Positions 5,277 to 32,877 of a stretch of 64,000 nucleotides of DNA are shown piece by piece. How positions within the stretch are numbered: the stretch's first letter is position 1; every line of letters begins with the position of its first letter. Under the pieces are notes generated by a model. It worked only from the letters and a program-made list of their open reading frames with translations, did not search any database and had not been told where the DNA came from. Where the stretch lies: the IMG/VR virus record IMGVR_UViG_3300035671_000001, positions 1-64,000 of that record. One strand, given 5' to 3'. Position numbers and translations under genes: made by a program. This DNA is from a virus.

Positions 5277-5352
5277 GCGAGCCTAGATCAGCGAGAGCAC
5301 CATATGCCGAGAGCGAGCCAGGAGACCTGAGAGCACCACGATCCGATAGCGC
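5277..5352 (+). ncRNA. TIGR mini-array, 2 units
   Basis: GCGAGCC-TAGATCAGC-GAGAGCACC-ATATGCCGA-GAGCGAGCC-AGGAGACCT-GAGAGCACC-ACGATCCGA. Confidence 0.85.
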
Positions 5353-5384
5353 CATTAACCCCAATAGACTGAAGAGGTAGAAAA

Positions 5385-6194
5385 ATGACAGACCCACGAA
5401 TGGGCGACAACGTCGACGCGCCCTACGCCGAAGGCATTGTTGATCGACTTGCGCAGGACTACGCCGAACTCATTACCAATAGCGCCGAAGCGATCCGAGA
5501 TGCTGAAGACCTGCCGCTGATCGTCGAGAGCACCATCGACGTAGCTACACTTTCCAGCATGGTCATCAAGCTGCGCGATCTTGCTGGCCGCATTGCCTCA
5601 CATCACAAGGCGGAAAAGGAGCCGTTTTTACGTGGCGGCACTGCCGTCGACAATTTCTTTCTGAAGCCGAAGGAGAAGCTCAACGGCAAGCGCAAAGAGC
5701 TGGAATCTCGCGTCGATGTTTTCCAGCAGCGCAAGCTGGCGGAGGAACGCGCTAAACGTGCGGCGGAGGCGGCGGCAGCTCGACAGCGACAGCTCGAAGC
5801 GGAGCGTGCCAGTCAGGCGGCAGAAGCGGCGGCACGGCGGGCGCGCTCGGCAGAGACTGCGGAGATTCGAAGGGCTGAGGCGGCACGTGCCAAGGTCGAG
5901 GAGGAGATGGCCACAGCCAAGGCGGACGAAACCAAGTTGGCCACCTTGGCAACAGGCGGCTCGCTGGTGCGCGAACGTTTTCAGGGCGACGATCGCTCTG
6001 GCATGGCCACGATGCGCAAGAAGAAAACGGCTATGGTGACTGACATTGCCGAACTCGATCTTGAGAAACTGCGCTTCTACTTCAAGCCCGAGCATCTTGA
6101 GCAAGCACTGCGTGCATGGGCGACTGCGACGGACTATAACGATCAGATGGCCGGCGCGATCGTCAGCAAGGGTGATACCACAATGATCCGTTGA
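5385..6194 (+). CDS. Coiled-coil phage protein of the recombination module
   Basis: GAGGT RBS; Ala/Glu/Arg-rich helix; EKEPFLRGG.AVD.FF motif. Confidence 0.6.
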   Translation: MTDPRMGDNVDAPYAEGIVDRLAQDYAELITNSAEAIRDAEDLPLIVESTIDVATLSSMVIKLRDLAGRIASHHKAEKEPFLRGGTAVDNFFLKPKEKLNGKRKELESRVDVFQQRKLAEERAKRAAEAAAARQRQLEAERASQAAEAAARRARSAETAEIRRAEAARAKVEEEMATAKADETKLATLATGGSLVRERFQGDDRSGMATMRKKKTAMVTDIAELDLEKLRFYFKPEHLEQALRAWATATDYNDQMAGAIVSKGDTTMIR

Positions 6195-6320
6195 GTTACC
6201 GGACGCGGGGCATTCTTCAGTCGGGCAGCGGCGGGCTCGACTTATCGAAAAATGGCCTGCGGGTCCTGCGTTCCGGTGCGTTATTTTCTCCGTTCAAGGC
6301 CATTGACCGCCGCTCTTTTC

Positions 6321-6460
6321 GAGCCACCCGCAGGGAGTGCACCAAAAGGCGAGAGCGAACCACGACAGTTGAGAGTACCAGATCATCCGAGTGAGCCACG
6401 ACACTAGAGAGCACCAGATCATTCGAGCGAGCCATAACTGAAGAGAGCACCACGACGAAG
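6321..6460 (+). ncRNA. TIGR mini-array, 4 units
   Basis: 36-nt period with alternating GAGCGAGCC and GAGAG[CT]ACC repeats and 9-nt spacers. Confidence 0.9.
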
Positions 6461-6560
6461 AATGAGCGCACAGCTCAAGTTTACAAAATGGTCGGGCGCG
6501 CTCAAGGTCGTCAACCGCCGCACCTTTTTCACTGAGATGATTAGAAAGGAGAAAACGCCT

Positions 6561-7559
6561 ATGCCGCGTTCAGCAGTATGGCCAACCCTACGATACGGCG
6601 ATCTAGAGCGGGTCCACTCAATTGTCGAACAGGTAACGCCGGAGATGGCCAACGCCAAGATTCCCGGCGCGCTGTTCGAACGACAGCGACCGCTGCGTAA
6701 AAGCAACATTCTCAGATTGACTAACGAGATGAGGGAGGACCGCTTCTTGCCGGGAACGCAGATCGTGTTCTGCGTCACGCCGGATAACAAGGAAAGACTG
6801 GTCAACGGGCAGCATACGCTGACGTGCATTATCGAATCCGATCGGCCGCAATGGCTCACGATCACCTACATGCGGGCCGACAATATCGAGGATGTGGCAC
6901 AAATCTACAGCGTCCTCGATACGCAAGCGGTTCGCACCGTAGGCGATGCTTGTCGCGCGCATGGAGAGGAGATCACCTCAATTCCATATTTCCGGCAGCT
7001 CGCTTCTGCTGTGGGCATCATCGAGAACAACATGGAGCAGAAGGTAAGTATCAAGGGGCCAGCCTCGCGCGCTGGCCGCATCGCGCTGATGAAAGAATAC
7101 GAGGTGGCGGCACGAATGTTCGCCGGCACGATTGAGAGCGGCGGGCATGAACCGAAAAGCCGTATTCTGCGTGCAGCCATTATGGCCGTTGCGTTGGTGA
7201 CATTTCAGTATCAACCGTCGCTTGCGGCAGAGTTTTGGTCGGGTGTTGCCGATGATGAGGGGCTGGAGCGAAGGTCACCTGAGAAGACTTTGCTCACATA
7301 CCTGCGGGATGCGGATCGAAAGAAGTACCAGCAAGCGGGCGGTTGGCTACAGCGACAGATGCGCGTGAAGGCTGCGACATTGTGCTGGAATGCCAAGTTT
7401 CGAAACGAAGAACTTGAATTCATCAAACTCAACGCTTTCAAGCGCTATCGCTTGCTGGGCACGCGCTTTCATCACGGACTCTTCGACGACGAAACCGAGA
7501 TGCCTGATCCCATCATGTCGGACGAAGACAGCGTCGCCGCTTATTCCACGGGGAGCTGA
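6561..7559 (+). CDS. ParB-like/DGQHR-like N-terminal domain protein (in-frame upstream ATG at 6462)
   Basis: RQRPL...LVNGQHTL motif; AAAGGAG RBS at 6546-6551. Confidence 0.55.
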   Translation: MPRSAVWPTLRYGDLERVHSIVEQVTPEMANAKIPGALFERQRPLRKSNILRLTNEMREDRFLPGTQIVFCVTPDNKERLVNGQHTLTCIIESDRPQWLTITYMRADNIEDVAQIYSVLDTQAVRTVGDACRAHGEEITSIPYFRQLASAVGIIENNMEQKVSIKGPASRAGRIALMKEYEVAARMFAGTIESGGHEPKSRILRAAIMAVALVTFQYQPSLAAEFWSGVADDEGLERRSPEKTLLTYLRDADRKKYQQAGGWLQRQMRVKAATLCWNAKFRNEELEFIKLNAFKRYRLLGTRFHHGLFDDETEMPDPIMSDEDSVAAYSTGS

Positions 7560-7569
7560 GAGGTGTGTG

Positions 7570-8532
7570 ATGACGGCGCAGCTCAAATTCACCAAGTGGT
7601 CGGGCGGCTCGGTGGGCCGCCCCGGCCTATACGAAGACATGAGACTTGATCACTACCATGGCCGCGATGTGTGCGACGGCGTCTCGATCAGCTCTAGCGG
7701 ACTTCGCACGATCTTTAATGAAAGCCCGGCGCATTATTGGTGCGGCAGCGTGTACAACAAGGAGCGTATCGAGGAAGAGCCGAGCCGAGAAATGGTGATT
7801 GGGCGGGCCATGCACCATCTGATGTTAGGTGAGCCGTATTTCGCTGAAATTTTCCGGCGCGCGCCCACCGAGGTGCCAGATGCCAAGGGCGTTCTCAAGC
7901 CGTGGAGCCTGCAGCTCAACTACGCCAAGGAGTGGCGAGACGCGCGCAAGCGGGAGGGCAAAGAGATTATCTTTCCGAAAGAGGTTGAGCTGATCGAGGG
8001 CATGGCGCGGGCGCTCGGTGCACACGAGATGGTGCAGGCGGGCGCTTTCGACGGCTATGTCGAGCGCTCCGGATTTTGGCGCGACAAGGAGACTGGGATA
8101 TGGCTCAAGATCAGGCCCGACGTGATCCCGTCCGATAGCGGTGACGTCTGCGATCTCAAGACCACAGCGAGTGTGCAATGGAAAGATTTGCAGCGCACCG
8201 TTGCCGAGCTGGGATACGTTCAACAATTTGCACTGATGCGAGAGGTGCTCCGAAATCTCGGATTTCCGTTTGCCAGTGCCACGTTGATCTTTGTGGAGCG
8301 CAAGCCGCCGCATTGCGTGCGTGTTGTCTCGCTGCGCTCTACCGATCTAGATCGTGGCCAGCAGATGAATCGGTATGCGCTGCGGACGTTTGTGCGCTGC
8401 TACAAGTCGAAGAAGTGGCCGGGGCCGGGCGGGACGCGCCGGGACGCCGAAGAAATTTGGCTGCCGGATTGGGCTCGTGAAAGCGTCGAGGCCAGATTGG
8501 CCTCTATGCAAGAGGATGAACAAGCCGCATAA
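7570..8532 (+). CDS. RecE/exonuclease VIII-like PD-(D/E)XK exonuclease
   Basis: YH....ISSSGLR, G.A.H..ML, K.RPD....DLKT, GY..QFA motifs. Confidence 0.85.
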   Translation: MTAQLKFTKWSGGSVGRPGLYEDMRLDHYHGRDVCDGVSISSSGLRTIFNESPAHYWCGSVYNKERIEEEPSREMVIGRAMHHLMLGEPYFAEIFRRAPTEVPDAKGVLKPWSLQLNYAKEWRDARKREGKEIIFPKEVELIEGMARALGAHEMVQAGAFDGYVERSGFWRDKETGIWLKIRPDVIPSDSGDVCDLKTTASVQWKDLQRTVAELGYVQQFALMREVLRNLGFPFASATLIFVERKPPHCVRVVSLRSTDLDRGQQMNRYALRTFVRCYKSKKWPGPGGTRRDAEEIWLPDWARESVEARLASMQEDEQAA

Positions 8533-8545
8533 TATGTTTGCGGAC

Positions 8546-8581
8546 AGCCATCTGGCATGAGTGCACCAAAATTTGGGAGCG
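8546..8581 (+). ncRNA. Solitary TIGR unit
   Basis: AGCC-ATCTGGCAT-GAGTGCACC-AAAATTTGG-GAGCG, followed by a hairpin at 8589-8618. Confidence 0.8.
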
Positions 8582-8588
8582 ACTACAG

Positions 8589-8618
8589 GCGAGCCCGGTG
8601 AAATGCCGGGCTCGCTTT
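8589..8618 (+). terminator. Intrinsic terminator-like hairpin
   Basis: GCGAGCCCGG-loop-CCGGGCTCGC-TTT. Confidence 0.55.
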
Positions 8619-8635
8619 AACCAAACGGAGAACAT

Positions 8636-8851
8636 ATGAAGAAGCCAGCAAAGCCGTCTCCCACGATGGCTCTGAGCAAGAAGGATAACGACGTGGTGAC
8701 TACCGAAGCGCGTGCACCGTTGTCGCTTGAGCATATCCGCTCGGACAGTTTGCGCGCGCGTGTTGATGCTGTGCGGACGATCTCGGAGCTGGAATCGTGG
8801 CGGGACGAGATCGAGGCAACCATCGCGTTCTTGAAGGCGCAAAAGAAATAA
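8636..8851 (+). CDS. Hypothetical protein
   Basis: GGAG RBS; fits the operon. Confidence 0.55.
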   Translation: MKKPAKPSPTMALSKKDNDVVTTEARAPLSLEHIRSDSLRARVDAVRTISELESWRDEIEATIAFLKAQKK

Positions 8852-8867
8852 GCAGCGGGGTGACGTC

Positions 8868-10145
8868 ATGGCTGACGAGCCGAGCGATATTCCTGAGGAC
8901 GTCACCGAGCCAGTGCAGCCGGAGCCGGAGCCCGCACCGAAGCCGCCGCCGTCGATGGAAGGCAACGGCAAGAGCGAAACCATCTCCGACAGTGTGCGCA
9001 GGGCGCGGGACGTTATCCCGGTTGGGGATCGCGGCGTCACTCCACAGACTTATGCCCAGTGGATCGATATCGCCAAGGACGTTTGCAAAGCGTACCTGAT
9101 GCTGCCGCAGCACCTGCACAACAACCCGCCGGTGATGGCGGGATTGTTGGAGATCGCTGCACGGTTTCAGCTCTCAGCCTATATGCTGGCCTCGCAGACC
9201 TACGTGCAGAATAACCGACTCTGTTTTCAGGCCCAGGCATTTGGCGCAATCCTTTACGCGTCCGGGCTATTGCGGGGGCGGCTGAAGTTCGAATTCTACG
9301 GCGAAGGCGAGGATATGACTTGCAGCGTCAGCGGGCGGTTCAAGGATGATCCGGACGCAATCTATAGCGCGACGACACCGCCAGTGAAGTTGATCCATCC
9401 CGGCCACACCCAGAAGGAGGGCAAAACCTTTGTTAAGGGCTCGCCACTTTGGGATCGCGATCCGGAGCAACAGCTTTCCTATTTCGCTGAGCGGCGTTGG
9501 ATCAGGCGCTATGCTCCGGATGCCTGCATGGGCATGTACACGCGGGAAGAGATTGACGAGATCGACGAATTCCGCGCCGGCCAGAAGGGGGCGATTCCGC
9601 TGACGGCCGATCGGCTCGGGCAGTTGGATACCGATGAGGGCTGGCGTGAGGGCGCTCATGTCGACATGGACTTGGCCGCCATTGCCCCGGAGCAGCCGGA
9701 GTCTCAGCCCGAGCCCGAGCCCGAGCCGCCTTCGCCGCCGCGAAAACCCCCACGCCGGCCAGCCAGGAAGACCACTGGTGGGCGCAAACCGGTGGCGAAG
9801 GCGAAGGCCACCCCAGCTCCGAAAGCCAGTCCAGGGAGGCCCGCAAAGCCCCGCCGGGGGCGGCCACCATCTCGCGCGGTGATCAAGGAAGTCGTCAAGC
9901 GGGCCGAGCTGCCGCCGCGCCGGGTGACGGCCATGCCTCCCAAGTGGCTGGACTACATCAGTGAGGCTGACGCCTGGATTGCGACCGTCACCAATGAGGA
10001 GAAGGCGGAGCTGAAGTGGGATGCCGAGCGTGAGGCCCGCGATAAACTGCAGGTGCCAATCGGGGAGCGTTCCAGATTGAGAGCCATGCTCGATCGTAAG
10101 ATAGCGCAGCTCCGTCCGAAGCCGAAGACGGAGGACGAGGCATGA
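8868..10145 (+). CDS. RecT-like single-strand annealing protein
   Basis: Follows the RecE-like gene; SPLWDRDPEQQL.Y...R.W.RRYAPD..MG.YT.EE motif. Confidence 0.75.
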   Translation: MADEPSDIPEDVTEPVQPEPEPAPKPPPSMEGNGKSETISDSVRRARDVIPVGDRGVTPQTYAQWIDIAKDVCKAYLMLPQHLHNNPPVMAGLLEIAARFQLSAYMLASQTYVQNNRLCFQAQAFGAILYASGLLRGRLKFEFYGEGEDMTCSVSGRFKDDPDAIYSATTPPVKLIHPGHTQKEGKTFVKGSPLWDRDPEQQLSYFAERRWIRRYAPDACMGMYTREEIDEIDEFRAGQKGAIPLTADRLGQLDTDEGWREGAHVDMDLAAIAPEQPESQPEPEPEPPSPPRKPPRRPARKTTGGRKPVAKAKATPAPKASPGRPAKPRRGRPPSRAVIKEVVKRAELPPRRVTAMPPKWLDYISEADAWIATVTNEEKAELKWDAEREARDKLQVPIGERSRLRAMLDRKIAQLRPKPKTEDEA

Positions 10146-10366
10146 GCATCGGCAAGCGGTATTGGGAATTCACTCATGGGGAGACGTCGCTGCACAAGTG
10201 GAGGAACAAGACGCTCTACATGCCCGACGGCCACGGCTTGTTCAAAGCTGGCGATGTTGTGGGCGTGGTGATTGATACCAGCGAGATGGTCATCGTCTGG
10301 AACCCAGCTAATTCCCCGGAGGGATTCGAGCCAATGGACCCAGAGGAGCCGAAAGGCGGAGAATGA
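10142..10366 (+). CDS. Hypothetical protein
   Basis: ATGA coupling to neighbouring genes. Confidence 0.5.
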   Translation: MSIGKRYWEFTHGETSLHKWRNKTLYMPDGHGLFKAGDVVGVVIDTSEMVIVWNPANSPEGFEPMDPEEPKGGE

Positions 10367-10585
10367 ATGATGCACCAGTCCACTTTCCAATATCTCATGC
10401 CGAACGACGAACAGAAAGAACAGATGGCAGAAGCGCGGCGGGCCGCATTGCAGTATGCCGACGTGCTCGACAAGGTGATCCCAGAGGGGCCGGACAAGAC
10501 TTTCATCATCCGGCAGCTCCGCACCGTCGCCATGTGGGTCAACGTAAGCATAACCAGGAATTCTGATGGAAGCCCACGAGCATGA
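10367..10585 (+). CDS. Acb2/Tad1-like helical hairpin protein (putative anti-defence nucleotide sponge)
   Basis: F.Y..P...Q...M...R......A..LD..IP.GPDK......L....MW.N.SI pattern, recalled as Acb2/Tad1-like. Confidence 0.55.
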   Translation: MMHQSTFQYLMPNDEQKEQMAEARRAALQYADVLDKVIPEGPDKTFIIRQLRTVAMWVNVSITRNSDGSPRA

Positions 10586-11016
10586 AGCTCGTCAGACCTC
10601 ACATTCCGCTCCGGGTGCGGCTTCATGTGATCGCGCAGCAATTGCATGAGCACGGCCAACTCATCGACGTGTTGGCAGCGATCTCTCTCCCGCAGGATAA
10701 AGATCGGCTCACCTTCATGCTCAAGCGGCTGTTTGGCGACGAGAAGGTGCATCTCGATCACGATCCGCCATTGTGCCTGCGAGAAATCATCGACGCCGAG
10801 TGCGGTCTCTACCGTCCCGATGCCAATGATGCGCGCTATCTGGCGTATCGCACCGAGGAAGAGCACCGGCTAAAGACCTTCGTGCGCGGTGATGGTGCGC
10901 AGCTCAGCGATGCGGGCAAGCGGCGCAAGGAGATCAGGCGCAAGCGGAGGGAGATACCGCGTCCATCTCGCTGGCCACCGCGCGGCTCGCGCCCGCTGCA
11001 ATGGAGGCCACGTTGA
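10582..11016 (+). CDS. HNH-like endonuclease
   Basis: HLDHDPPL ... N...YL......H..KT. Confidence 0.55.
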   Translation: MKLVRPHIPLRVRLHVIAQQLHEHGQLIDVLAAISLPQDKDRLTFMLKRLFGDEKVHLDHDPPLCLREIIDAECGLYRPDANDARYLAYRTEEEHRLKTFVRGDGAQLSDAGKRRKEIRRKRREIPRPSRWPPRGSRPLQWRPR

Positions 11017-11227
11017 GGGCGCCCGGCATCCCACCTCCGGTGCGTGGTTGGCGCATGCAGCAACATGAGATCGACGATAACAGTGAGTTCATTGCAGAAT
11101 GTCTGCGGCTATGGGATCAAGGATGCGATACCAAGGACATCGCGACGACCTTGTTCCAACCGGAATCCATTGTGGAAACTGCCGTTCGGCTTGGTCGTGA
11201 GCGACGTCGACGAATGGAGGACTAACA

Positions 11228-11503
11228 ATGGTGGTGAGGAAGAAGCGGCCCGTTTCAAAACGCAAGCGTGTCGCGAAGCCGCCGTATGTCAAGCGAGCGC
11301 GTGAATACCAAAAGCTGATGGAGCAGCTTGGGCTCAATCAGTTGGAAACCGGCCGGATGTTCGAATATTCCGGTCGCGCCTCGCGTCGCTATAAGCGCGG
11401 CGATGGCAAGGTGCCGATGACGGCATTGATCTTGATGCGACTGATGGCGAGCGGCGATCTGACCAAGCGCCAAGTGATGCAGGCGAGCGCGCTTCAGGCT
11501 TGA
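11228..11503 (+). CDS. XRE/Cro-like HTH protein
   Basis: LGLNQ....RMF..SGRASRRY; paralogous to 35388-35603. Confidence 0.65.
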   Translation: MVVRKKRPVSKRKRVAKPPYVKRAREYQKLMEQLGLNQLETGRMFEYSGRASRRYKRGDGKVPMTALILMRLMASGDLTKRQVMQASALQA

Positions 11504-11536
11504 CGACACCCGGACAATATGGCCTAGTCTGCCATC

Positions 11537-12148
11537 GTGTACAGCAGCCGCACCACGATCGTAGTACGCGCGCTGGTTTGCCTGGCGTTGCTCGCAGCCA
11601 TTCTTTTCATTCTCTTTGTGTTGGTGCGGCCAGTTATCGGCGCCGATGTTGTCACCCGGTGCAGTGCAACGCGAGGATCTGATCGCGGGCATTGGGCATG
11701 GCGTGAAGTTGCTGGCCGCAAGTGTTGGTACATAGGCGAGACAGGGCGGGCAAAGGAATTGCTGCGTTGGATCGATGTCGTATCCCCGTCGTCCAACACA
11801 GCGGTGGGACGGCCCGAGGTCGCGGAGAAAGACACCCCGCGTAGGAGTACTCCCGACTTCGTGGCCGAACCCACTATCGAATCGGAATCGAATACAGCGG
11901 AGGCTGTCCCATGGCAAGCGACACCCGAGGATCAGTTCCTAGCCTTCACGTGTTGCTGGCCCGAGCTAACGACGCCATCGGCGCTTTCAACGCCGTCACC
12001 GACGCCGTTAATGAAGAGTCAGGACCGTCTCGGCGTCCCGGAGCTGCCGCGAGCGACGCCGCCGAGTCAGACAATCTGGCCTCTTATATTCCTGCCCGTC
12101 ATCGTGATCGCGGTGTCGGTGTTGTTCGCGAAAAGGAGACTCACATGA
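11537..12148 (+). CDS. Membrane-anchored hypothetical protein
   Basis: Hydrophobic helices at both termini; HWAWR.V.GRKCWY. Confidence 0.55.
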   Translation: MYSSRTTIVVRALVCLALLAAILFILFVLVRPVIGADVVTRCSATRGSDRGHWAWREVAGRKCWYIGETGRAKELLRWIDVVSPSSNTAVGRPEVAEKDTPRRSTPDFVAEPTIESESNTAEAVPWQATPEDQFLAFTCCWPELTTPSALSTPSPTPLMKSQDRLGVPELPRATPPSQTIWPLIFLPVIVIAVSVLFAKRRLT

Positions 12149-12480
12149 GCATGGAAGAAGAATTCGAAAAGATAGTGCCAACATATCGTGCACCTGAACA
12201 ACGAAGCAACGGGCGCACTGACTTCGTGCATCTAGCTGAGCAAGTTGCACAAGCGATGATCCAATCCTGCGAGGAGCAGGTTGCTAAGGCGCAAACTACA
12301 TTGGAGCGGACCCGTAAGGATGCCGAGGAGCTTCTGGCAGCGGTCAAGAGCAAGGATCGTGAGATAGTCGACATGACGAATCGGATCGCAGCGTTAGGCG
12401 AGCAGGTACTTGAAGCAAACCGTGCCTTTCATGCTACGATAGACGCAAGCCAGGAAGATCGAGAGCACCATAAGAGTTGA
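12145..12480 (+). CDS. Coiled-coil hypothetical protein whose 3' end lies in a TIGR unit
   Basis: AAGGAG RBS; stop codon at 12478-12480 falls inside the array. Confidence 0.6.
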   Translation: MSMEEEFEKIVPTYRAPEQRSNGRTDFVHLAEQVAQAMIQSCEEQVAKAQTTLERTRKDAEELLAAVKSKDREIVDMTNRIAALGEQVLEANRAFHATIDASQEDREHHKS

Positions 12481-12809
12481 GCGAGTCATTCCCTCCGAGA
12501 GCACCAAACAAGCCGAGCGAGCCACGAGCGCTGAGTGTGCCCATACACCGGAGCGAGCCAAAGTAGAGGAGAGCACCATTTCCGAGGAGCGAGCCAAGAG
12601 CGGCTAGAGCACCACGCGAGAGGAGCGAGCCAAAAAGCAGAGAGCACCAAATAAGCTGAGCGTTAAGCCAGTGAACGGGTGAGCACCAAGTCGCGCGAGC
12701 GAGCCACGGGCTGGGAGAGCACCACCGAAACTGAGCGAGCCACTTCTACGGAGAGCACCAGACACGTTGAGCGAACCATGACTTCAGAGAGCACCCGAGA
12801 AATTGAGCG
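12445..12809 (+). ncRNA. TIGR array, 10 units
   Basis: 36-nt dual-repeat periodicity. Confidence 0.9.
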
Positions 12810-13122
12810 AGCGTTGCTTCTGTCAATCGAAGAAGATGACTGGAGTAAACGCTCGCTCACTGACGCCAGCGGCAAGGTGATTGGATTCTTCTTGCACCCG
12901 GAGGATCGCGATCTCGCAGTGAGCGCGCTCGAAGCGCAGAGCAACGTGCTCACTATGATGGACACATTCGTCGAGGCGCTATCCTACATTGCCAATCCAG
13001 ATACTGATCCGGAAGCGGCACGCGCGGTCGCTGCCAAGTGCGCTGACAATGCGAAGCGCTATGCCGACTTGTTCTGCAAGATTACGCCCGTCGAATTTAT
13101 AACAACCATAGTGCCATCATAA
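12778..13122 (+). CDS. Hypothetical protein, probably starting within the last TIGR unit
   Basis: In-frame ATG at 12778; a guide matches its DTFVE codons synonymously, supporting this frame. Confidence 0.5.
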   Translation: MTSESTREIERALLLSIEEDDWSKRSLTDASGKVIGFFLHPEDRDLAVSALEAQSNVLTMMDTFVEALSYIANPDTDPEAARAVAAKCADNAKRYADLFCKITPVEFITTIVPS

Positions 13123-13421
13123 GCATGAGCACGTACATGGCGCCGCCAAGCAGGGCGCCGTGCCAGTCTGTTGTCCACCAATAATAACCGACGCAAAAGA
13201 CACCAGCGAGCAAGAGCAGCACGTCGAGGCGGCGGACTTCGAAGCGTCCGAGCTTGTAGATCGGCACGTTGGCCCATTCGCCGAAGCCGTCCCACGCGGT
13301 TGTCACTACTCGCGGAATGCGGATTATCATGTTGCCCTCTGCCACGGCCATCTGCCGGTGAAGCCTCGGTACGCCAGCGTGAACAGTACCACGCCGATCG
13401 CGAACTCAGCCACGGTGTCCA

Positions 13422-13610
13422 TCACCATGGACGCGGTGGAAGTGGCCGCGCTACACCTTTGAAGATGCGGTAGGCGAGCTGCTTGCGTGCGTCCCGAACC
13501 ATCTGCTGAGCGCGTTGATTGGTGACTCCGAACTCTTGCGCGATGTCCGAGAGCAGCGCGCCGCTGAGCCGCATGTCGAGTGCGCGGGCGTAACGGGGCC
13601 AATCCTTCAC
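13422..13610 (-). CDS. Sigma70 region-4-like HTH protein
   Basis: G..LSDIAQEFGVT.QRAQQM. Confidence 0.55.
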   Translation of the reverse strand: MKDWPRYARALDMRLSGALLSDIAQEFGVTNQRAQQMVRDARKQLAYRIFKGVARPLPPRPW

Positions 13611-13930
13611 GACCCGGGCTCCGGTACTGCTATATTTGCTTCACCAAGCAATCCCTCCAGCGTGTCAATTCGCCGTTGCAGTCGCTCGATCTCGCGGCCG
13701 GCAGCGAGCATCACATCATGATTGATGATCATTTGCTTGTTGGCTGCCTCTAAGCGCATGACATCGTTTTCCAAGCGCCTCACATACTCGGAGTCAGAGA
13801 TCTCGGTCACAGCTTGCCCTCCCGTCAGGAACGTCACGATCTGCTCTGATGTTGCTTCAACCACGGCCTTGGGCCGCCTGCGCGGTTGATGGCGCGTGCG
13901 TTCGCTCGGCTTCCAATTGTCAGTAGTCAT
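13607..13930 (-). CDS. Hypothetical coiled-coil protein
   Basis: ORF coupled to 13422-13610. Confidence 0.45.
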   Translation of the reverse strand: MTTDNWKPSERTRHQPRRRPKAVVEATSEQIVTFLTGGQAVTEISDSEYVRRLENDVMRLEAANKQMIINHDVMLAAGREIERLQRRIDTLEGLLGEANIAVPEPGS

Positions 13931-14765: not shown

Positions 14766-14796
14766 GTGTGTTTTAGTCCTTTCCTATGAAGAGGAA

Positions 14797-14834
14797 CGCT
14801 CAACTTTCGATGGTACTCTCACCCCATGTGGCTC
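14797..14834 (-). ncRNA. Solitary TIGR unit on the minus strand
   Basis: Reverse complement reads GAGCC-ACATGGGGT-GAGAGTACC-ATCGAAAGTT-GAGCG. Confidence 0.8.
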
Positions 14835-14879
14835 CCACGGCGCGTGCGCCGTGGGGTAACTTTTATAGGGCCTTACGAG

Positions 14880-15982: not shown

Positions 15983-16059
15983 GTGCGAGCCAGCGAAAAC
16001 GAGAGCACCACAGCAGGAGAGCGAGCCATCGAGGCCGACAGTACCATAAACGACGAGCG
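15983..16059 (+). ncRNA. TIGR mini-array, 2 units
   Basis: GTGCGAGCC-AGCGAAAAC-GAGAGCACC-ACAGCAGGA-GAGCGAGCC-ATCGAGGCC-GACAGTACC-ATAAACGAC-GAGCG. Confidence 0.85.
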
Positions 16060-16365
16060 AAATTTATTTTCGTCGTGACGAACCCAAGCAACACGGGCAC
16101 TTATTGAATCGGAAGGCGGGATCGGTGCCGTACTTGTGCCGGTCCCGCCTAGAGTCAAGTCAGCGAATTGCCGCGAGAAAGCACTGTGCCGCAACGGCTT
16201 CTTGCATTCGACTCGCCGCAAGTCGCAAAAGTCGCGGACCCCATATGCTAGGATGTAAGCGTCGATCGGGAATGAGCCCGAGCGACGGGCTGTTTGATAG
16301 GTGAAGCCCGAATGAGGAAGGCGCGCCAGCCGCGAGCTGACGCGCCTTAGAGGAGAACCAATGCG

Positions 16366-16767: not shown

Positions 16768-16776
16768 TTCAAAGTG

Positions 16777-16809: not shown

Positions 16810-16812
16810 GTG

Positions 16813-17178
16813 GGCTCGCTCCTGCGCCTTGGTACTCTCTACAGCGCTGGCTCGCTCATGCAATGTGGTGCTGTCACTTCTTTTGGCTCGCTCTCAAAAC
16901 GTGGTGCTGTCTCTTGATGTGGCTCGCTCGTCCGACTTGGTGCTCTCCACCAATATGGCTCGCTCCGCCGATATGGTGCTCTCAGACTCCACGGCTCGCT
17001 CTCGACCTATGGCGCTCTCAACGGGCGTGGCTCGCTCCGGCGATCTGGTGCTCTCGCGCTGGTTGGCTCGCTCCGGATTTCTGGTGCTCACAGATCACGT
17101 GGCTCGCTCGCTAAGCGTGGTACTCTCGTCTCGTATGGCTCGCTCTCCCGGCTTGGTGCTCTCAGAGACTTTGGCTCG
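16813..17178 (-). ncRNA. TIGR array, 10 units, minus strand
   Basis: Plus strand shows GGCTCGCTC-N9-GGTGCTCTC-N9 repeated ten times. Confidence 0.9.
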
Positions 17179-17293
17179 TCAGCGCCCTCTTTACATTTGC
17201 GGCCATTATGGCCTATGGAGGGACAGCCGCCCCGGCTCGCCGCGCTAACGGACGAGCCAGGACTTGCAAAGGTGACCGTTGGAGGCGGTCGCA

Positions 17294-20617: not shown

Positions 20618-21709
20618 ATGGCAAAACGTCCTACTCATAAGAAGTGTCGGCAGTGCGGCGAATGGTTCATGCTCGGTAAGTACGAGCGCCTCACGCGGAA
20701 GTTCTGCACTTATAGCTGCGCGTCCACACATCGCAACGCGCAGCCGAAGTGGAAAAAGCGTCAGAGTAAACTGATGAAAAAGTTGGCGACGCCGGAAGTC
20801 ATGCGCGAACGCTCGCTCAAGATGTGGCGTGATCCTGCCATGCGTGCTCACCTGTCGGAGAAATCACGACAGCAGGCCAACACCAAAGAGCATCACGCCT
20901 GGATGATAGAGCACAATAAGAAACTGTGGACGGCTCCAGAGTACGCCGAATTTCGACAGCAGCACAGTGAGCGCACTCGCAAGACGGCCAAGAAACAATG
21001 GGATGATCCGGCGTTTCGCGAGAAGATTAGTGCCTTGACGACCGAGGCGAATAAGAAGCGCTGGGCCGATCCGGAATACAAAAAGCGAGTCGGCTTCAAG
21101 ATCCGTATCGCATTCGCTCAGCCGTTGTCAAAAGCAAAGCGTTCAAAGAGTTCACGCAAACAGATGATGAGACCGGAGCAGCGAACGCGGATAAGTAAGC
21201 TATCGAAAGAGCTGTGGCAGAATCCGGAGTACCGCGCCCTCGTAACCGAAAGCAGCCGAGCTGCAGCAATCAGGAATTATCGCAATCCATTTTACCGAGT
21301 AAAGAAACTTGCGGCGTTACGAAAATGGGTGCAGTCGCCAGAAGGCCGCGCACAGATGTCCGAACTCAATAAGAAACGTTGGGAGGACCCGGAATATCGT
21401 GCGCGGCAAAAAGCTCTATGGACGCCAGAAAAGAGCGCCGCGCTAAGTGAACTGAATAGAAAACGATGGGCTGATCCCAAGTTCAAAAAGCGCGTGGCAA
21501 AGAAGATTAGTAAGGCGAGACTCGAGAACACCAAGACACTCAGTGAGCAGAGCGAGCGAAGCAAAAAGCAATGGGCCGATCCAGAATTTAAGGCGCGTGT
21601 GAGTAAAAAAATCAGTAAGGGAAAGCGAGCCAAAAAAAAAAACGAGAACACCATCCAAGTTGAGCGAGCCACCAGAACTGAGAGTACCCGAAAAGGCGAG
21701 CGAGCCTAG
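20618..21709 (+). CDS. Zn-finger plus W-x-D-P-E-[YF]-R repeat (NUMOD3-like) basic nucleic-acid-binding protein
   Basis: KCRQCG...KFCTYSCA; about 10 K[KR]xWxDPE[YF][RK]-like repeats; C-terminus reads into the TIGR array. Confidence 0.65.
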   Translation: MAKRPTHKKCRQCGEWFMLGKYERLTRKFCTYSCASTHRNAQPKWKKRQSKLMKKLATPEVMRERSLKMWRDPAMRAHLSEKSRQQANTKEHHAWMIEHNKKLWTAPEYAEFRQQHSERTRKTAKKQWDDPAFREKISALTTEANKKRWADPEYKKRVGFKIRIAFAQPLSKAKRSKSSRKQMMRPEQRTRISKLSKELWQNPEYRALVTESSRAAAIRNYRNPFYRVKKLAALRKWVQSPEGRAQMSELNKKRWEDPEYRARQKALWTPEKSAALSELNRKRWADPKFKKRVAKKISKARLENTKTLSEQSERSKKQWADPEFKARVSKKISKGKRAKKKNENTIQVERATRTESTRKGERA

Positions 21710-22066
21710 CAGACGGACAGCATCATAATAGACGAGCGAGCCAAGATTAGTGAGAGCACCACGTCCGACGAGCGAGCCACGAAAGTTGAGAGCACCAAAG
21801 TGGCAGAGCGTAGCCAGAGAAAGTGAGAGCACCATTTTGAGCGAGCGAGCCATGTCCTGTGAGAGTACCAGACAAGACGAGCGTTAAGCCACTTGAAGCG
21901 AGAGTACCAAAACGAGTGAGCGAGCCAAGCGCGAAGAGAGCACCATGCAAGTTGAGCGAGCCATGTCCCATGAGAGTACCAAAAATCAGGAGCGAGCCAA
22001 GCGAGCCGAGAGCACCAATAGTCAAGAGCGAGCCATAACTACAGTGAGTACCAGAACAGGAGAGCG
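21623..22066 (+). ncRNA. TIGR array upstream of tas, about 12 units
   Basis: 36-nt dual-repeat periodicity ending 3 nt before the tas ATG. Confidence 0.9.
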
Positions 22067-22069
22067 AAA

Positions 22070-22858
22070 ATGACAGACGTTGCAGCAGTCCAAGCCTTAA
22101 CGCGTGATCTACGAAACGCCGCCGCGACAATGACGCGAGACGAAGCGCGATTCCTCGTTGATGCGTATTACATCATTCAAGACGATCGGAAGCGATCGGC
22201 CAACCAAGTGCGTTCTATGAAGGAGGAGCCACACGCCGTCCTTCAGTGGTTCTTCGATCAGAACGTCACGCTTGAAGGACAAATCAAGCGCGCCCTCGAT
22301 TCGTATTCCGACGCCAGCAAGATCGGCCTTTGGATGAAAGGAGTTTACGGAATCGGCCCGGTGATCGCGGCCGGGCTGCTCGCGCATATTGAGATCGACG
22401 ACAGCACTCCAACCGTGGGTCACATCTGGCGCTTTGCCGGACTTGATCCGACGGTGAAGTGGGAGAAGGGCCAGAAGCGGCCGTGGAATACTCAGCTCAA
22501 GACGCTGTGCTGGCACATCGGGCAGAGCTTCATGAAATTCTCAGGCCGCGACGAATGCCGCTATGGTAAGTTCTACCTTGCCCGGAAAAAGTTTGAAGTC
22601 GAGCGCAACGACTCAGGCGAGAACGCTGAGCTGGCGAAGACGCTGTTGCCGAAGTTCAACAAGAGCACCGACGCATACAAACATCTGCTCGGTGGGAAGC
22701 TGCCGCCGGCACAGATCGATGGGCGTGCACGTCGGTGGGCGGTGAAGCTTTTTCTCTCCCACATGCATGCTCAGTGGTTTAGATTGGAATTGGGCAAGGA
22801 GCCCCCCAAGCCATACGCGATTACGCAGCTCGGACATGGACACATGATTGAGCCATAG
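22070..22858 (+). CDS. tasA: TasA-like Nop-domain RNA-guided DNA-binding protein (IS110/IS116 Tnp_20-related; no RuvC or HNH domain)
   Basis: Coiled coil followed by GIGPVIAAGLL ... IWRFAGLDP ... WN..LKTLCW.IGQSF ... Y..RK ... ARRWAVKLFL; lacks a DEDD RuvC domain and the IS110 catalytic SG loop; embedded in dual-spacer arrays. Confidence 0.85.
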   Translation: MTDVAAVQALTRDLRNAAATMTRDEARFLVDAYYIIQDDRKRSANQVRSMKEEPHAVLQWFFDQNVTLEGQIKRALDSYSDASKIGLWMKGVYGIGPVIAAGLLAHIEIDDSTPTVGHIWRFAGLDPTVKWEKGQKRPWNTQLKTLCWHIGQSFMKFSGRDECRYGKFYLARKKFEVERNDSGENAELAKTLLPKFNKSTDAYKHLLGGKLPPAQIDGRARRWAVKLFLSHMHAQWFRLELGKEPPKPYAITQLGHGHMIEP

Positions 22859-24779
22859 GGTTTGAGAGCACCATCGAAGTCGAGCGAGCCACACGGACAG
22901 AGAGCACCACGATCATGGAGCGAGCCACGGACCTAGAGAGCACCACATAGGCGGAGCGAGCCAGAACACTTGAGAGCATCACGCGTGAGGAGCGAGCCAG
23001 ACGAGACGAGAGCATCATCCTCGATGAGCGAGCCACTGCGGCTGACTGTACCTATAGGAACGAGCGAGCCATTCTACACGAGAGTACCAAGCGAGCCGAG
23101 CGTTTCAGCCATGTAGAACGACAGCATCAGAGCCGAAGAGCGAGCCATGGGAGATGAGAGCACCACGTTGACAAAGCAAGCCATGATCTTTGAGAGCACC
23201 AAGCGAGCCGAGCGTTAAGCCAAGGAGCAAGAGTGCACCACATTGTGCGAGCGAGCCAGAAAACGCGAGAGTACCAAGGCTAGAGAGCGAGCCAAACCGT
23301 AAGAGAGCACCACAAAAAGCGAGCGAGCCGAGGGAGCTGAGAGTACCATATATGAGGAGCGAGCCATAAAGCGCGAGAGCACCATCCTCGACGTGCGAGC
23401 CATGCTCACTGAGAGTACCAAAATGAGCGAGCGAGCCAGAGCCCAAGAGAGCACCATCTGCTCAGAGCGTAGCCAAATGAGCAGAGTCGTACCAACATAG
23501 GAGAGCGTAGCCAAGATCGACGAGCGTACCCTGTCGGAGGAGCGAGCCAAAGACGATGAGAGCACCATGGTGAATGAGCGTAGCCACAAGACAGGACAGC
23601 ATCATGCGATTTGAGCGAGCCACTTCCCAAGAGAGTACCAAGCGAGCCGTGCGAGCCATGGGTAGCGACAGCACCATATGAAGAGAGCGAGCCACCGTTG
23701 ATGAGAGCGCCATGCCAAGCGAGCGAGCCACAGAACTTGCGAGTACCATGTCGTAGGAGCGAGCCAGCGGTAACGAGAGTACCATGGCGACGGAGCGAGT
23801 CATCGCCGCAGAGAGCACCACACGAAGTAAGCGAGCCAATGCGCGTCGAGAGTACCAAATAAGATGAGCGAGCCATGCAGGACGAGAGCACCATCACGCC
23901 AGAGCGCAGCCACAGCCACAGAGAGCACCATCGCTTAAGAGCGAGCCTTACCAGACGAGAGTACCCTACGATCAGAGCGAGCCAAGTCACAGGAGAGCAC
24001 CAAGCAAGGAGAGCGAGCCAGGGCGAGAGAGAGCACCACTACGCGCGAGCGAGCCACGGCGATTGTGAGTACCACGAAAAATGAGCGAGCCTTGTAAGAG
24101 GAGTGCACCAAATCATATGAGCGAGCCTTCGGCCGGGTGAGTACCATTGAACATGAGCGAGCCGGAAAACGCGAGAGTACCAAAAAGCGTGAGCGAACCA
24201 ATGACGAAGAGAGTACCAAAAGGAATAAGTGAGCCAGGGTGTGAGAGAGTACCAAGCGGGCCGAGCGTAGCCATCGGCAGGGAGCGTGCCATATGATCAG
24301 AGCGCTAGCCACGTATGATGAGAGCACCAAGCGCAGTGAGCGAGCCAGTAGCCAAGGGAGCACCAAGTCGGCCGAGCGTTTCAGCCATGCTGATGGAGTT
24401 GCACCACATCAGACGAGCGAGCCTTCCCGCCGGAGAGTACCAAGCAAGCTGAGTGAGCCGTGAAGTCTGAGAGCACCATATCGGCGGAGCGAGCCACGCC
24501 GAACGACAGTACCAAACCCGCCGAGCGAGCCAACGCGATCGAGAGTACCAAGCTGACCGCGCGAGCCATCGACCGCGAGAGCACCATTGCGCATGAGCGA
24601 GCCACGTCGATCGAGAGGACCAAACCACAAGAGCGAGCCAACCAGCGCGAGAGCACCAGATCGCCGGAGCGAGCCATACCGTTTGAGAGCACCACAGAAG
24701 CTGAGCGAGCCTGCGCAGTAGAGAGCACCAACGCAAGAGAGTGAGCCACCCACGATGAGAGTACCACGCCCCGTGAGCG
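22850..24779 (+). ncRNA. Main TIGR array, about 53 units
   Basis: GAGCGAGCC-N9-GAGAG[CT]ACC-N9, period 36 nt, with occasional 1-4 nt insertions in the GAGCG/AGCC repeat. Confidence 0.95.
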
Positions 24780-24849
24780 TCCTCCGAGAATAGCGGGGAG
24801 AACGTAAGCAATCGGACTCGACTCTAACGGCCGAATCGTTTTCAAAGAG

Positions 24850-24886
24850 AAGGCCCGCTCGGGCGGCGAACCCCGGCGGGCCTTTA
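24850..24886 (+). terminator. Hairpin closing the main array transcript
   Basis: AAGGCCCGC...GCGGGCCTTT. Confidence 0.5.
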
Positions 24887-25573
24887 ACGCGAGCAACCTA
24901 TTATTCTAAGGCGGGTTGCTGCGCTCCTCGAACACCTGTGAGGCAGGTGCCGATGCACAATACCTACATTGCGATTCGGTTCCGCGCAAGATTTTGTGCA
25001 CAGGGTTATGCCCTGTCCACAAAGTGTTGTGTCTGATTTGCGACATTAACGGGCTGCTAGCGAAAGCTGGTGGCCCTTTTTGCGTTTGCTGGAGCCTCGA
25101 ACGTGCCGCACGTCGGTAGAGAGGCGGCCAGCGCCCGGACCATCTAGGGCGATCTGAGGGATGCTGAGGCCGGTCAACAGATGGGCGATGAGCCCTGAGC
25201 AATACGGTCGGAGGCGCCTGGACCCTAGAGTCGCCGGGAAGGAGGCCGGGAGGCGGTGGTCTGGTGTTCGAACGCCCACTGCCGCCTCCTCGGTCCACTG
25301 CCCTGTGAGGCGGTGCGGAGCCGGGTGTGAGCGCCCTCTCGGAGGGAGTGCTGGCCGCAGGGCGCCGATAGCAAAATCATGTGGCCATGGACCGTGGCGG
25401 AGTGACGACCGTCATAGGTGCCCGTAAGGGCGGGACAGTCGTCCCCAGCACCGGATGACTTCTCAGCTCATGGTAGCTGAGCCTCATCCGGGTGTTGGAG
25501 GACTCTAGAAGGATTCGTAGCCGAGCAGAAAGCTCTCTTAGAGAACACTCTCTCAAAGGAAATGGATGGATTG

Positions 25574-31569: not shown

Positions 31570-31658
31570 GTACTGCAGAGGGCCGCGCGTTGCGGCCCTC
31601 GACAGTGTTTATCCGAACGCTCCTGCCTTGCAAGCGGGCACTCTTAGGAGTCACCACC

Positions 31659-31832
31659 ATGTCACTCAACGAAGCAATCGCCGTTGTAAAGGCGAATGGC
31701 TACCGCGTGAGCAAGCCGAAGGCGACGAAGAAAGTTGCCCCGCGCTTGAACGCAGTCGGTCGGCCGTTCTCGTCGTCCTACGATCCCAACTACAAAATGA
31801 AATACAAGCCAAAGCGCTACGCCTACCCGTGA
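31659..31832 (+). CDS. Small hypothetical protein
   Basis: GGAG RBS within the repeated module. Confidence 0.5.
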   Translation: MSLNEAIAVVKANGYRVSKPKATKKVAPRLNAVGRPFSSSYDPNYKMKYKPKRYAYP

Positions 31833-31925
31833 ACAGCGCAGAAGGCAGCCGCGTGCTGCCTTCGACAGTGTTCATTCGAACGCTACGCCTCTTGCAAATT
31901 GGCGTCCCTCACTGGAGTCACTACA

Positions 31926-32822
31926 ATGAATAAACCAATCAAAATCGCAACGCCGCTCTCTCGAAAGGCGGTGCTTGTCTCTGTGAATATCTCGCAGTGG
32001 ACGGCGCGAAAGTTGGATCGCAAGGTCACCGACGAAGTTAACCGCGCGCACAACGCGGCCAAGGACGCCGGGCGATACAACAAGCTCTTGATCGAGGCCG
32101 AGCACTTGGCCGAAGTCAACAAGCTGGTTTCGAGTGCCAGGAGCTTGCACTACAGCATGACGCGGCCGTGGGCGGACGAGGGTCCGCGCATTCTGCCAAA
32201 CGCGCTCTACTCGAAGTTCACTGACGCATTCCGTAACTTGAAGCGTGAGTTTCAGATTGCGGCTGATGCGTTCTGCGCCGGCTATCCGAGCTTCGTTGAA
32301 GAGCGGAAGAAATCTTTGAACGGCTTGTTCAAAGAAGCGGACTATCCGTCAGCGAACGACATCCGCAACAAGTTCAAGCTTGAATTGAACGTGTTGCCAT
32401 TGCCAGACGCAGAGGACTTCCGCACCGATCTTGATCCCGACACGCTCGCGGACATCAAACGCGAGATGAGCGAGACTTCCGGCAAGGTGCTTGACGATGC
32501 AATGAAACAAACATTCGTTGAGATCACCGAGCTGGTCGGCCACATGGCCAAGAAGTTGAACGAGCAAACGGCCAAGACCAAGCAGAAAGGCGAGCGCAAA
32601 TTCTATCTCGACTCGCTCGTCAACAACGTGCGCGACTTGGCTGACTTGTTGCCTGCCTTCAATCTGACTGACGATCCGAAGCTCACCGCTATCACCAACC
32701 GCATTGCTAAGGAGCTATGCGTGGAAGATGCGAAGGAGCTGCGGAAGAATGACGAAGCTGCCAAGACAGTCGCCAAAAGCGCTGACGAGATCGTGGCCGA
32801 GGTGGCCAAATTCCTCGGCTGA
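31926..32822 (+). CDS. DUF3150-like protein
   Basis: KAVLVSVNISQW.ARKLD ... T.PW...G.RILP ... LF...DYPS; typical partner of the AAA and vWA genes. Confidence 0.65.
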   Translation: MNKPIKIATPLSRKAVLVSVNISQWTARKLDRKVTDEVNRAHNAAKDAGRYNKLLIEAEHLAEVNKLVSSARSLHYSMTRPWADEGPRILPNALYSKFTDAFRNLKREFQIAADAFCAGYPSFVEERKKSLNGLFKEADYPSANDIRNKFKLELNVLPLPDAEDFRTDLDPDTLADIKREMSETSGKVLDDAMKQTFVEITELVGHMAKKLNEQTAKTKQKGERKFYLDSLVNNVRDLADLLPAFNLTDDPKLTAITNRIAKELCVEDAKELRKNDEAAKTVAKSADEIVAEVAKFLG

Positions 32823-32840
32823 TGATACTCTGGTGCTCGC

Positions 32841-32877
32841 GAGCCACTGCCTCGGAGAGTACCAAAGAACGAGAGCG
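32841..32877 (+). ncRNA. Solitary TIGR unit
   Basis: GAGCC-ACTGCCTCG-GAGAGTACC-AAAGAACGA-GAGCG. Confidence 0.85.

Follow-up and report, generated by a model that had tools for sequence, protein, structure and literature searches.

Both papers that defined the TIGR-Tas systems state that the natural targets of the guides, as well as the way in which the arrays gain spacers, are unknown (PMC12045711; bioRxiv 10.64898/2026.09.09.750476). The TIGR units of a soil phage, scattered among the genes of the virus, raise the question of what such guides are aimed at. With guides of only 16 nt, database searches return too many spurious hits, but at this locus the question becomes tractable without a database, since a near-cognate site adjoins the guide, obeys the two-strand geometry of the system and departs from the guide sequence nearly exclusively at silent positions. 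These features provide a first sequence-based hint at the natural aim of TIGR guides, most likely competing alleles of genes that the phage itself carries.

The window analyzed here comprises the first 64 kb of the 82.5-kb phage genome. It contains about 90 dual-repeat TIGR units in ten separate arrays dispersed across 28 kb, of which four are large, three are mini-arrays and three are solo units. As in other TIGR-Tas loci, two alternating repeats of 8-12 nt are separated by spacers of about 9 nt, with a period of 36 nt. The edge repeat is GAGCGAGCCA and the loop repeat GAGAGYACCA; both end in CCA (box C) and begin with GAG, in keeping with a box C and a shared box D. The published TasR consensus begins with UG, and edge and loop repeats are reported to vary together in these motifs. 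The apparent spacer opens with a conserved A that belongs to box C, so that the variable spacers have 8 nt and the informative core of a guide 16 nt.

Two of the large arrays border the tasA gene, one with about 12 units upstream (21623..22070, +) and the main array with about 50 units downstream (22846..24783, +); in the latter, sub-arrays are linked via variant edge repeats and unit 23438 'targets' the junction adjoining it. The third has 10 units on the minus strand (16813..17181), is followed by a terminator-like hairpin (16780-16803) and has two guides in common with the main array. About 9 units form the fourth (12443..12813, +), between ORF 11911-12480 and a small ORF ending at 13122. 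Gene 5385-6194 lies between a mini-array of two units upstream (5275..5346, +) and one of four units downstream (6317..6460, +), in which units 6362 and 6398 are 13/16 identical. A further two-unit mini-array occurs at 15983..16063 (+), and a search for local matches to its guides gave none that was convincing.

This phage shares with the described TIGR-TasA systems (Faure et al., 2025, PMC12045711; Xu et al., 2026, bioRxiv 10.64898/2026.09.09.750476) a phage-borne, nuclease-free Nop-domain Tas protein, two alternating repeats of about 10 nt ending in CCA, short spacers with the 36-nt period, truncated edge repeats with a terminator at array ends and a tandem-spacer geometry in which both DNA strands are read. 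Solo units 8550 and 32846 and the minus-strand array end as published arrays do, with a truncated edge and then a hairpin. The differences are in layout and content: published arrays are described as flanking or lying within tas, whereas the ten seen here extend across 28 kb, and for four guides or more the neighboring gene contains a near-cognate site.

The tasA gene (22070..22858, +) encodes a 262-aa TIGR-associated protein whose RNA-binding domain is of the Nop (IS110 C-terminal-like) type, as assigned by profile and PDB hits, and its final codons (ATG ATT GAG CCA TAG) serve also as the first, 5'-truncated edge repeat of the main array. The protein matches the profile phrog_4285 (E 2.5e-44), with a weak hit to PF02371 (20.6 bits, slightly below the cut-off); among structures, it matches 9mty (E 1.5e-10), an entry described as IS116/IS110/IS902 C-terminal domain protein, and TasH (E 5.8e-7). 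The PDB alignment begins at query residue 37 as against residue 125 of the 9mty chain, which indicates that the N-terminal nuclease domain is missing from TasA. The comparison with Pfam gave no nuclease family, and the absence of HNH and RuvC domains places the protein in the TasA subtype. No partner nuclease was found among neighboring genes; for one nearby gene with a PHROGs label of HNH, Pfam gives DUF2201/vWA instead.

The guides were read as spacer A followed by the reverse complement of spacer B, which describes the same duplex as B plus the reverse complement of A and gives the published 8-nt 3' overhangs (PMC12045711). Read in this way, four guides have a site matching at 13-14 of 16 positions only 57-219 nt away, in the recE-like gene, the small ORF, the DUF3150-like gene and tasA. 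One of these guides belongs to the solo unit at 8541..8612 (+), which starts 9 nt past the stop of the recE-like reading frame (7390-8532; 320 aa in the database gene call; phrog_412 and PF12684) and precedes a gene for a RecT-like annealing protein (8868..10145, +; phrog_561 and PF03837), so that a recombination module lies on either side of it. It consists of a truncated edge (..AGCCA), spacer A, the loop GAGTGCACCA, spacer B and a truncated edge (GAGCGA), and a 10-bp hairpin follows at 8583-8612. Guide 8550 matches 8453..8468 (+) at 14/16, within the conserved EEIW[L/M]PDW motif of the recE-like product; spacer B pairs at 8/8 positions and spacer A is mismatched at its positions 3 and 8.

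The solo unit at 32837..32881 (+) is inserted after the stop codon of the DUF3150-like gene (31899-32822), ahead of the conserved terminator region of that gene, which has the form ACTAAG-hairpin-TCATAGTGT. Guide 32846 matches 32745..32760 (+) in that gene (KNDEA) at 13/16, with all three mismatches at codon position 3; the same holds for guide 12742 (unit 12742-12768) and its 13/16 site at 12961..12976 (+) in ORF 12679/12835-13122 (DTFVE). Guide 22891 (unit 22891-22917), in the main array, matches the end of tasA (22835..22850, +; HGHMI) at 14/16, and both differences are silent (CAT/CAC, ATT/ATC). Two weaker pairs score 11-12/16 and involve gene 5385-6194: guide 5284 with 5460..5475 (+; YAELI; 11/16, four of five mismatches at codon position 3), which is weak alone, and guide 6398 with 6173..6188 (+; 12/16, three of four) at the 3' end of the gene. 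All five pairs quoted in an earlier note on this DNA are present in the sequence at the coordinates given there; those of guides 22891 and 6398 were added by the present analysis. In agreement with that note, no guide has a perfect self-match in the genome, the best being 14/16, and the resident sites carry 2-5 mismatches each.

The local near-matches are a real property of this genome. When guides were permuted among unit positions and sites of at least 13/16 within 300 nt were counted, 3 were observed against 0.16 expected (P about 5e-4). With a tighter mask there were 5 against 0.38, a number reached in 0/5000 permutations, one of the five being an array-internal junction rather than a gene. 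A wobble-aware test (at most one non-wobble mismatch and at least 11/16) gave 5 against 0.43 (P < 0.001). Three wrong geometries yielded 0, 0 and 1 local sites, which bears out the reading rule assumed at the outset and offers an independent natural check of A plus reverse-complemented B targeting for a TasA system. The proximity thus exceeds its controls (P <= 5e-4), and the earlier claim that resident sites differ mainly at synonymous positions holds: in the four score-selected pairs, codon position 3 holds 9/10 mismatches (P = 3.6e-4). This bias indicates that the divergence arose in coding sequence under purifying selection and that it is not random decay of the guides. For array guides, the excess of synonymous near-matches at other places in the genome was weak and non-significant.

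These observations suggest, with a probability that we consider about even, that the guides are aimed at sibling alleles of the adjacent genes and that the resident allele is spared. Small guide cassettes, solo units or mini-arrays, would have been inserted in untranslated gaps beside conserved genes, each guide reproducing, in TIGR geometry, 16 bp of the gene next to it, though in another, mostly synonymous version. Once expressed and processed, such guides could direct TasA to the matching allele of co-infecting or superinfecting sibling phages, where the bound protein would block transcription or replication of the sibling, with a presumed effect on fitness; a block is proposed because TasA is a DNA binder and an RNA-guided repressor, not a cutter (bioRxiv 10.64898/2026.09.09.750476). 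The resident allele is assumed to escape through its 2-5 mismatches. For SpTasH, most single mismatches strongly impair cleavage, and two adjacent ones abolish it, results that refer to cleavage and not to TasA binding (bioRxiv 10.64898/2026.08.11.744272). Guide and immune allele lie within about 200 nt, and recombination between siblings would rarely join a guide with a sensitive allele. The concrete hypothesis gained is discrimination between phage and sibling phage with a linked immune allele.

Comparison with siblings supports part of this interpretation. The one non-silent difference in the recE-like pair has the guide encoding M and the resident gene L, and across 30 sibling proteins the consensus residue is M (IWMPD); the sibling G001 has ATG at this site, as in guide 8550. 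Solo unit 32846 is a clean insertion of about 47 nt relative to G001, upstream of the conserved terminator. G001 has neither unit 32846 nor unit 8550, but it is devoid of TIGR entirely and its sites are not perfect targets. The sibling-allele interpretation of the earlier note is thus strengthened by the link to the neighboring gene in the true geometry, the silent differences, the M consensus and the 32846 insertion, whereas the perfect hits that it predicts in orthologous genes of unit-less relatives were not found in the collections searched, which contained no close siblings (>80% nt). Five sibling recE loci had none (best 14/16), nor did the whole genome of G001, and the best orthologous sibling sites reached 14/16 and 13/16. 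Exact scans of IMG/VR gave zero hits for the tasA and recE targets and, for the other two, matches only in unrelated genes; guides of this repeat family gave no hits above control geometries in the related phages examined. Also counting against the sibling-allele reading, the local pairing of guide and site did not recur among 80 loci with these repeats (1348 units) or in three other whole phage genomes with scattered units of this repeat family. The phage itself is present, as contigs, in only one DNA run. That soil run also contains pieces 80-90% alike to it, close to the divergence expected from the guides, which show 10 differences in 64 nt.

The arrangement has a precedent, and the notion that a locus-linked layout of this kind was undescribed is untrue in general. 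The Sulfolobus portogloboviruses SPV1 and SPV2 also carry one- or two-spacer arrays in intergenic regions, with spacers aimed at close kin viruses and the orthologous site of the carrier mutated, preventing self-targeting; the targets lie close to the mini-array, a proximity that the authors remarked without explanation (Medvedeva et al., 2019, PMC6858448). Those are CRISPR arrays that borrow host Cas proteins, whereas the effector here is the phage-encoded TasA, a binder, and the 16-nt guides are split over two strands. Perfect targets were shown in co-occurring kin for SPV1/SPV2; for this phage the kin targets are inferred, none having been found.

The same guide and site could instead act in cis, TasA with a local guide forming a tunable roadblock on an imperfect nearby site and thereby controlling the phage's own genes, an explanation that we regard as somewhat unlikely. 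Repressor activity of TasA has been demonstrated (bioRxiv 10.64898/2026.09.09.750476), and guide and site share one transcription unit at a spacing of 57-225 nt. The sites of guides 8550, 32846, 22891 and 6398 are located directly before the guide, at the 3' end of the upstream gene, where a roadblock would throttle read-through into the guide and later genes as a feedback; those of 5284 and 12742 are early in the downstream gene. However, a selected pair should stay complementary, and these pairs carry 2-5 mismatches in 16, one of them, for the recE-like gene, at position 3 of spacer A. That codon position 3, to which the protein is blind, accounts for 9/10 of the mismatches speaks for escape or allelic divergence and not for co-evolution, and the strong impairment of SpTasH by most single mismatches, though measured for cleavage and not for TasA binding, points the same way.

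The pairs might also be footprints of guide birth. Units would have been made by a cis-acting adaptation step from DNA beside the insertion point, the guide first matching the resident gene, silent escape following, and the present pairs being relics with no current target. This is an unlikely account, even if it addresses a proximity otherwise hard to explain and a spacer gain that the literature leaves unexplained. Unit 23438, which 'targets' its adjoining junction, would be consistent with it. The lack of the pattern in the other genomes is likewise what fading traces would predict. Yet a randomly decaying relic predicts 2/3 of the differences at codon positions 1-2, where 1/10 was seen, and the recE-like guide is the sibling consensus, not a random variant. 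Moreover, this account overlaps with kin discrimination, since a self-derived guide followed by resident escape would still arm the phage against siblings with the old allele.

A third alternative, which we judge quite unlikely, regards the 36-nt guide cassette as a selfish mobile element for which TasA, supplied in trans from one locus, marks the sibling allele. Binding would lead to a break or a stalled fork, or recruit a host nuclease, and RecE/RecT repair would copy the cassette and the linked immune allele. The clean 47-nt presence/absence relative to G001 and the recE/recT module around one solo guide fit this proposal. So does the layout, which resembles the free-standing homing endonuclease genes seg and mob of T-even phages, agents of intronless homing and marker exclusion: these are small intergenic insertions beside conserved genes with a target in the neighboring gene, and many are promoter-less cassettes read off upstream transcripts (Edgell et al., 2010, PMC2988022). 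The seg and mob genes, however, encode a protein nuclease that makes double-strand breaks, whereas here a 36-nt RNA confers the specificity, one locus provides the protein in trans, and neither TasA nor the neighboring genes show a nuclease; a cleavage-based homing drive therefore lacks its enzyme. The searches among relatives yielded none that lacks the unit and has a perfect site, and the pattern did not turn up in the other genomes examined. If homing were true, the units would match free-standing homing endonucleases and T-even marker exclusion in an RNA-guided form and, if mobile, would be the smallest homing-type elements known. Accidental near-matches are very improbable, as scans with permutation and geometry controls (P <= 5e-4), in which the controls fail to reproduce the signal, and the independent codon-position bias (P = 3.6e-4) outweigh the shortness of the guides (16 nt), the testing of about 90 of them, the first choice of pairs by eye and the individually unremarkable 11/16 and 12/16 pairs.

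Six defined guide-site pairs are thus open to direct tests of binding, repression and marker inheritance. The remaining solo unit (14793..14838, -), in which spacer B has 9 nt, differs from them: 12 contiguous nt of the target predicted for unit 14803(-) match 14852-14863 only with spacer B taken as 9 nt, and this match falls in non-coding DNA, on the arm and tail of a hairpin.

The window covers positions 1-64000 of an 82.5-kb virus record, which comes from soil and is complete according to CheckV. Among its gene products are a recE-like exonuclease, a RecT-like annealing protein, a helicase, an MT-A70 methyltransferase, a terminase and an AAA/DUF3150-like/DUF2201-vWA cassette. The tasA gene (22070-22858) codes for a protein of 262 aa that matches phrog_4285 and, weakly, the IS110 C-terminal family PF02371; its PDB matches are 9mty_A (IS116/IS110/IS902 C-terminal domain protein, E 1.5e-10) and TasH (E 5.8e-7). 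Since the PDB alignment begins at residue 37 of the query and residue 125 of the chain, the protein is a Nop-only TasA devoid of the nuclease domain, and the phage system is a member of TIGR-TasA. At the C-terminus of TasA, GHGH lines up with the C-terminal GGH..Y stretch of the 9mty chain. The final tasA codons, ATG ATT GAG CCA TAG (22843-22858), also serve as the opening edge repeat of the main array, truncated at its 5' end, so that the end of the protein and the start of the array are one sequence.

About 90 TIGR units occur in ten separate arrays in the window. According to the published repeat rules (PMC12045711), each unit has a 36-nt period and consists of the edge repeat GAGCGAGCCA, an 8-nt spacer A, the loop GAGAGYACCA and an 8-nt spacer B. 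The first base that the earlier note assigned to a spacer belongs to box C (CCA), being its conserved A. The targeting rule of the note, spacer A followed by the reverse complement of spacer B, is correct, as it is the only one that fits the published 8-nt 3' overhangs (PMC12045711), and R2 (GAGAGYACC) is the loop; the duplex is the same as that of B plus the reverse complement of A. Two large arrays flank tasA. A 10-unit array lies at 16.8-17.2 kb on the minus strand, and a further one, at 12.4-12.8 kb, has about 9 units. Mini-arrays are found at 5.3, 6.3-6.5 and 16.0 kb. The solo units, at 8.55, 14.8 (minus strand) and 32.85 kb, show truncated edges followed by a hairpin, as described for array ends.

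Guides are named by the start of their unit and matches are scored over the 16-nt core of the target. The five guide-site pairs quoted previously are all present in the sequence. Guide 8550, with the core AAATTTGGATGCCAGA, matches site 8453 in the recE-like gene (14/16); guide 12742 matches site 12961 in a small ORF ending at 13122 (13/16), guide 32846 site 32745 in the DUF3150-like gene (13/16) and guide 5284 site 5460 in the gene at 5385-6194 (11/16), while guide 14803 shares 12 contiguous nt with non-coding positions 14852-14863, for which a 9-nt spacer B is required. Two further pairs were detected: guide 6398 with site 6173 (12/16) and guide 22891, in the second unit past tasA, with the last tasA codons at 22835-22850 (14/16, both differences silent). 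The claim that no perfect self-match exists held in a systematic scan of all guides, where the best match was 14/16.

The proximity of guides and sites exceeds that of shuffled-guide controls. When all guides were scanned for sites of at least 13/16 within 300 nt, three were observed against 0.16 with guides permuted among unit positions (P about 5e-4); with a tighter mask the figures were five, one of them an array-internal junction, and 0.38, and 0 of 5000 permutations reached as high. A wobble-aware criterion gave five against 0.43, and three wrong geometries yielded 0, 0 and 1 sites. The near-matches are real and are explained neither by chance nor by simple duplication. To turn a site into a guide, it has to be cut in two, one half inverted and the loop placed between them. 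Genome-wide, array guides have 10 synonymous-only near-matches, compared with about 5 (range 1-8) in controls, an excess that is weak and, without the local pairs, unconvincing.

As had been anticipated, mismatches are enriched at codon position 3 (9/10, P = 3.6e-4, in four pairs picked by score alone). The differences thus arose in coding sequence under purifying selection and not by random decay of the guides. This silent-site bias leaves two origins for a pair: a guide copied from a different allele of the gene, or silent changes by which the resident gene diverged from the guide. The sole non-silent difference is that the guide encodes IWMPD and the resident gene IWLPD; 30 sibling RecE-like proteins (69-79% identity) have IWMPD as their consensus, and the ATG of the guide is also present in the sibling phage G001. 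The longer motif EEIWMPDW is encoded by the sibling recE genes P0002, P0004, P0007, P0012, P0022 and P0026. The divergence implied by the guides, 10 differences in 64 nt, resembles that of many pieces 80-90% alike from the same soil run; G001 is more distant (65-80% identical across shared genes).

No TIGR units occur in G001. Between its DUF3150-like and vWA genes lie ACTAAG, a hairpin and then TCATAGTGT; the phage under study has the same three elements, with the hairpin compensated, plus about 47 nt upstream that are exactly the solo unit at 32.85 kb. The position of this extra sequence upstream of the common terminator elements places the unit in the 3' untranslated region, ahead of an ancestral terminator.

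Perfect guide hits in orthologous genes of relatives, expected by the earlier note, were not found in five recE loci, in G001 or in exact IMG/VR scans. RecE-alignment scans of IMG/VR, JGI metagenomes and GTDB genomes retrieved few close siblings (L011, which is G001, L050, L051, L052 and L112); none of their recE loci carries a perfect site, the best being 14/16, and the other orthologous sites in G001 are more distant. Exact-pattern IMG/VR scans with four guide targets returned 0, 0, 22 and 4 hits, none in an orthologous gene, and a DNA search of INPHARED phages gave no match. The contigs of one run, the probable source, show no target-site variant over 5200-25150 among the matches listed; since contigs drop rare variants, this weighs neither for nor against the reading. 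The peptides of guides 6362 and 6398 (DSWMI, DTRMI) are absent from 26 homologues of the gene at 5385-6194, the closest of which is only 60% identical. A 15/16 match of guide 22891 in G002, a phage with the same repeats, was discarded because it falls within a zinc-finger gene that is unrelated, rather than within tasA.

The same two repeats were found in about 65 IMG/VR contigs (L138-L217), some with scattered arrays. Local near-matches were not above controls in 80 loci with 1348 units of this repeat family, nor in the whole phage genomes G002, G004 and G005. Family guides compared with 2.4 Mb of related phage DNA gave 1 exact and 87 one-mismatch matches, no excess over the control geometries (2-3 and 67-89). 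TasA is only 46-58% identical in these three soil phages (L239-L254); scattered and solo units are common in same-repeat phages, with 10-11 clusters in G002 and G004, and one guide of G002 is repeated at three distant places.

The best reading of the arrangement is kin discrimination, to which we give an even chance. TasA is a binder and repressor (bioRxiv 10.64898/2026.09.09.750476), and the TIGR effectors assayed to date are mismatch-sensitive (PMC12045711; bioRxiv 10.64898/2026.08.11.744272). Guide-loaded TasA would leave the resident allele alone and bind that of siblings, and with guide and immune allele closely linked, self-targeting recombinants would be avoided. The sibling-allele interpretation put forward earlier is partly supported: the silent-site bias and the IWMPD consensus favor it, but the searches above found no perfect target, the pattern did not recur in the phages with the same repeats, and for a drive TasA has no nuclease domain. 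The nearest functional precedent is provided by the mini-CRISPR arrays of the Sulfolobus viruses SPV1 and SPV2, whose spacers target kin near the array and whose carrier has its own site mutated; the authors noted this proximity and left it unexplained (PMC6858448). The statement that no dispersed, locus-linked arrangement had been described must therefore be revised: dispersed units with near-cognate neighbouring sites are new for TIGR and precedented in kind. The arrangement bears directly on the stated open questions of the TIGR field, natural targets and spacer origin.

Imperfect cis-regulation is a possible but rather improbable alternative to kin discrimination: where the sites lie is compatible with a roadblock, yet complementarity should have been retained in a pair under selection. 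It is doubtful that the pairs are relics of cis-acting guide birth followed by escape, an explanation that overlaps kin discrimination. True homing is unlikely too, for although the layout mirrors that of free-standing homing endonucleases (PMC2988022), a nuclease is absent. Chance has hardly any probability.

Other matches concern the array guides. Guide 22999-23025 and the guide at 12139-12165 of L010, a phage with a 68%-identical TasA, are alike at 13/16 positions once spacers A and B are exchanged, which means that both address the same duplex; a single reading frame (DETS R/K) accommodates the three differences, and the implied DETS[RK] peptide was not found in the genomes compared. The target of guide 24712-24738 matches the initial codons of a gene on the minus strand at L010:6333-6348 (15/16; chance expectation for such a match in that locus, about 0.04) and window position 24984 (12/16). 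The DUF2201/vWA gene at 32973-34436 holds six array-guide sites of at least 13/16, of which two score 14/16 and have wobble mismatches only, whereas 28 controls gave 0-3; this cluster was rejected, its scan statistic being ordinary. The same gene is annotated as an HNH endonuclease in PHROGs and as a metallopeptidase-like plus vWA domain protein in Pfam.

Several array units (21999, 23071, 23183, 23622 and 23438; 21999-23666) have a spacer with the sequence of the edge repeat (AAGCGAGCC). For unit 23438, the predicted target matches, at 14/16, the junction where a variant edge (GAGCGTAGCC) meets the next spacer (23468-23485), and spacer B of this unit is the inverted repeat of spacer A of the following one. 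Expanded edges (GAGCGTAGCC, GAGCGTTAAGCC and GAGCGTTTCAGCC) join sub-arrays. The minus-strand array and the end of the main array have guides in common (17038 and 24640 identical; 16966 and 24460 alike at 15/16), the sharing extending over 16966-17064 (-) and 24460-24666 (+). The solo minus-strand unit at 14.8 kb (14822-14866) overlaps a strong hairpin (14833-14856), the 3' flank of which is complementary to spacer A of the unit, so that unit and terminator-like structure interlock.
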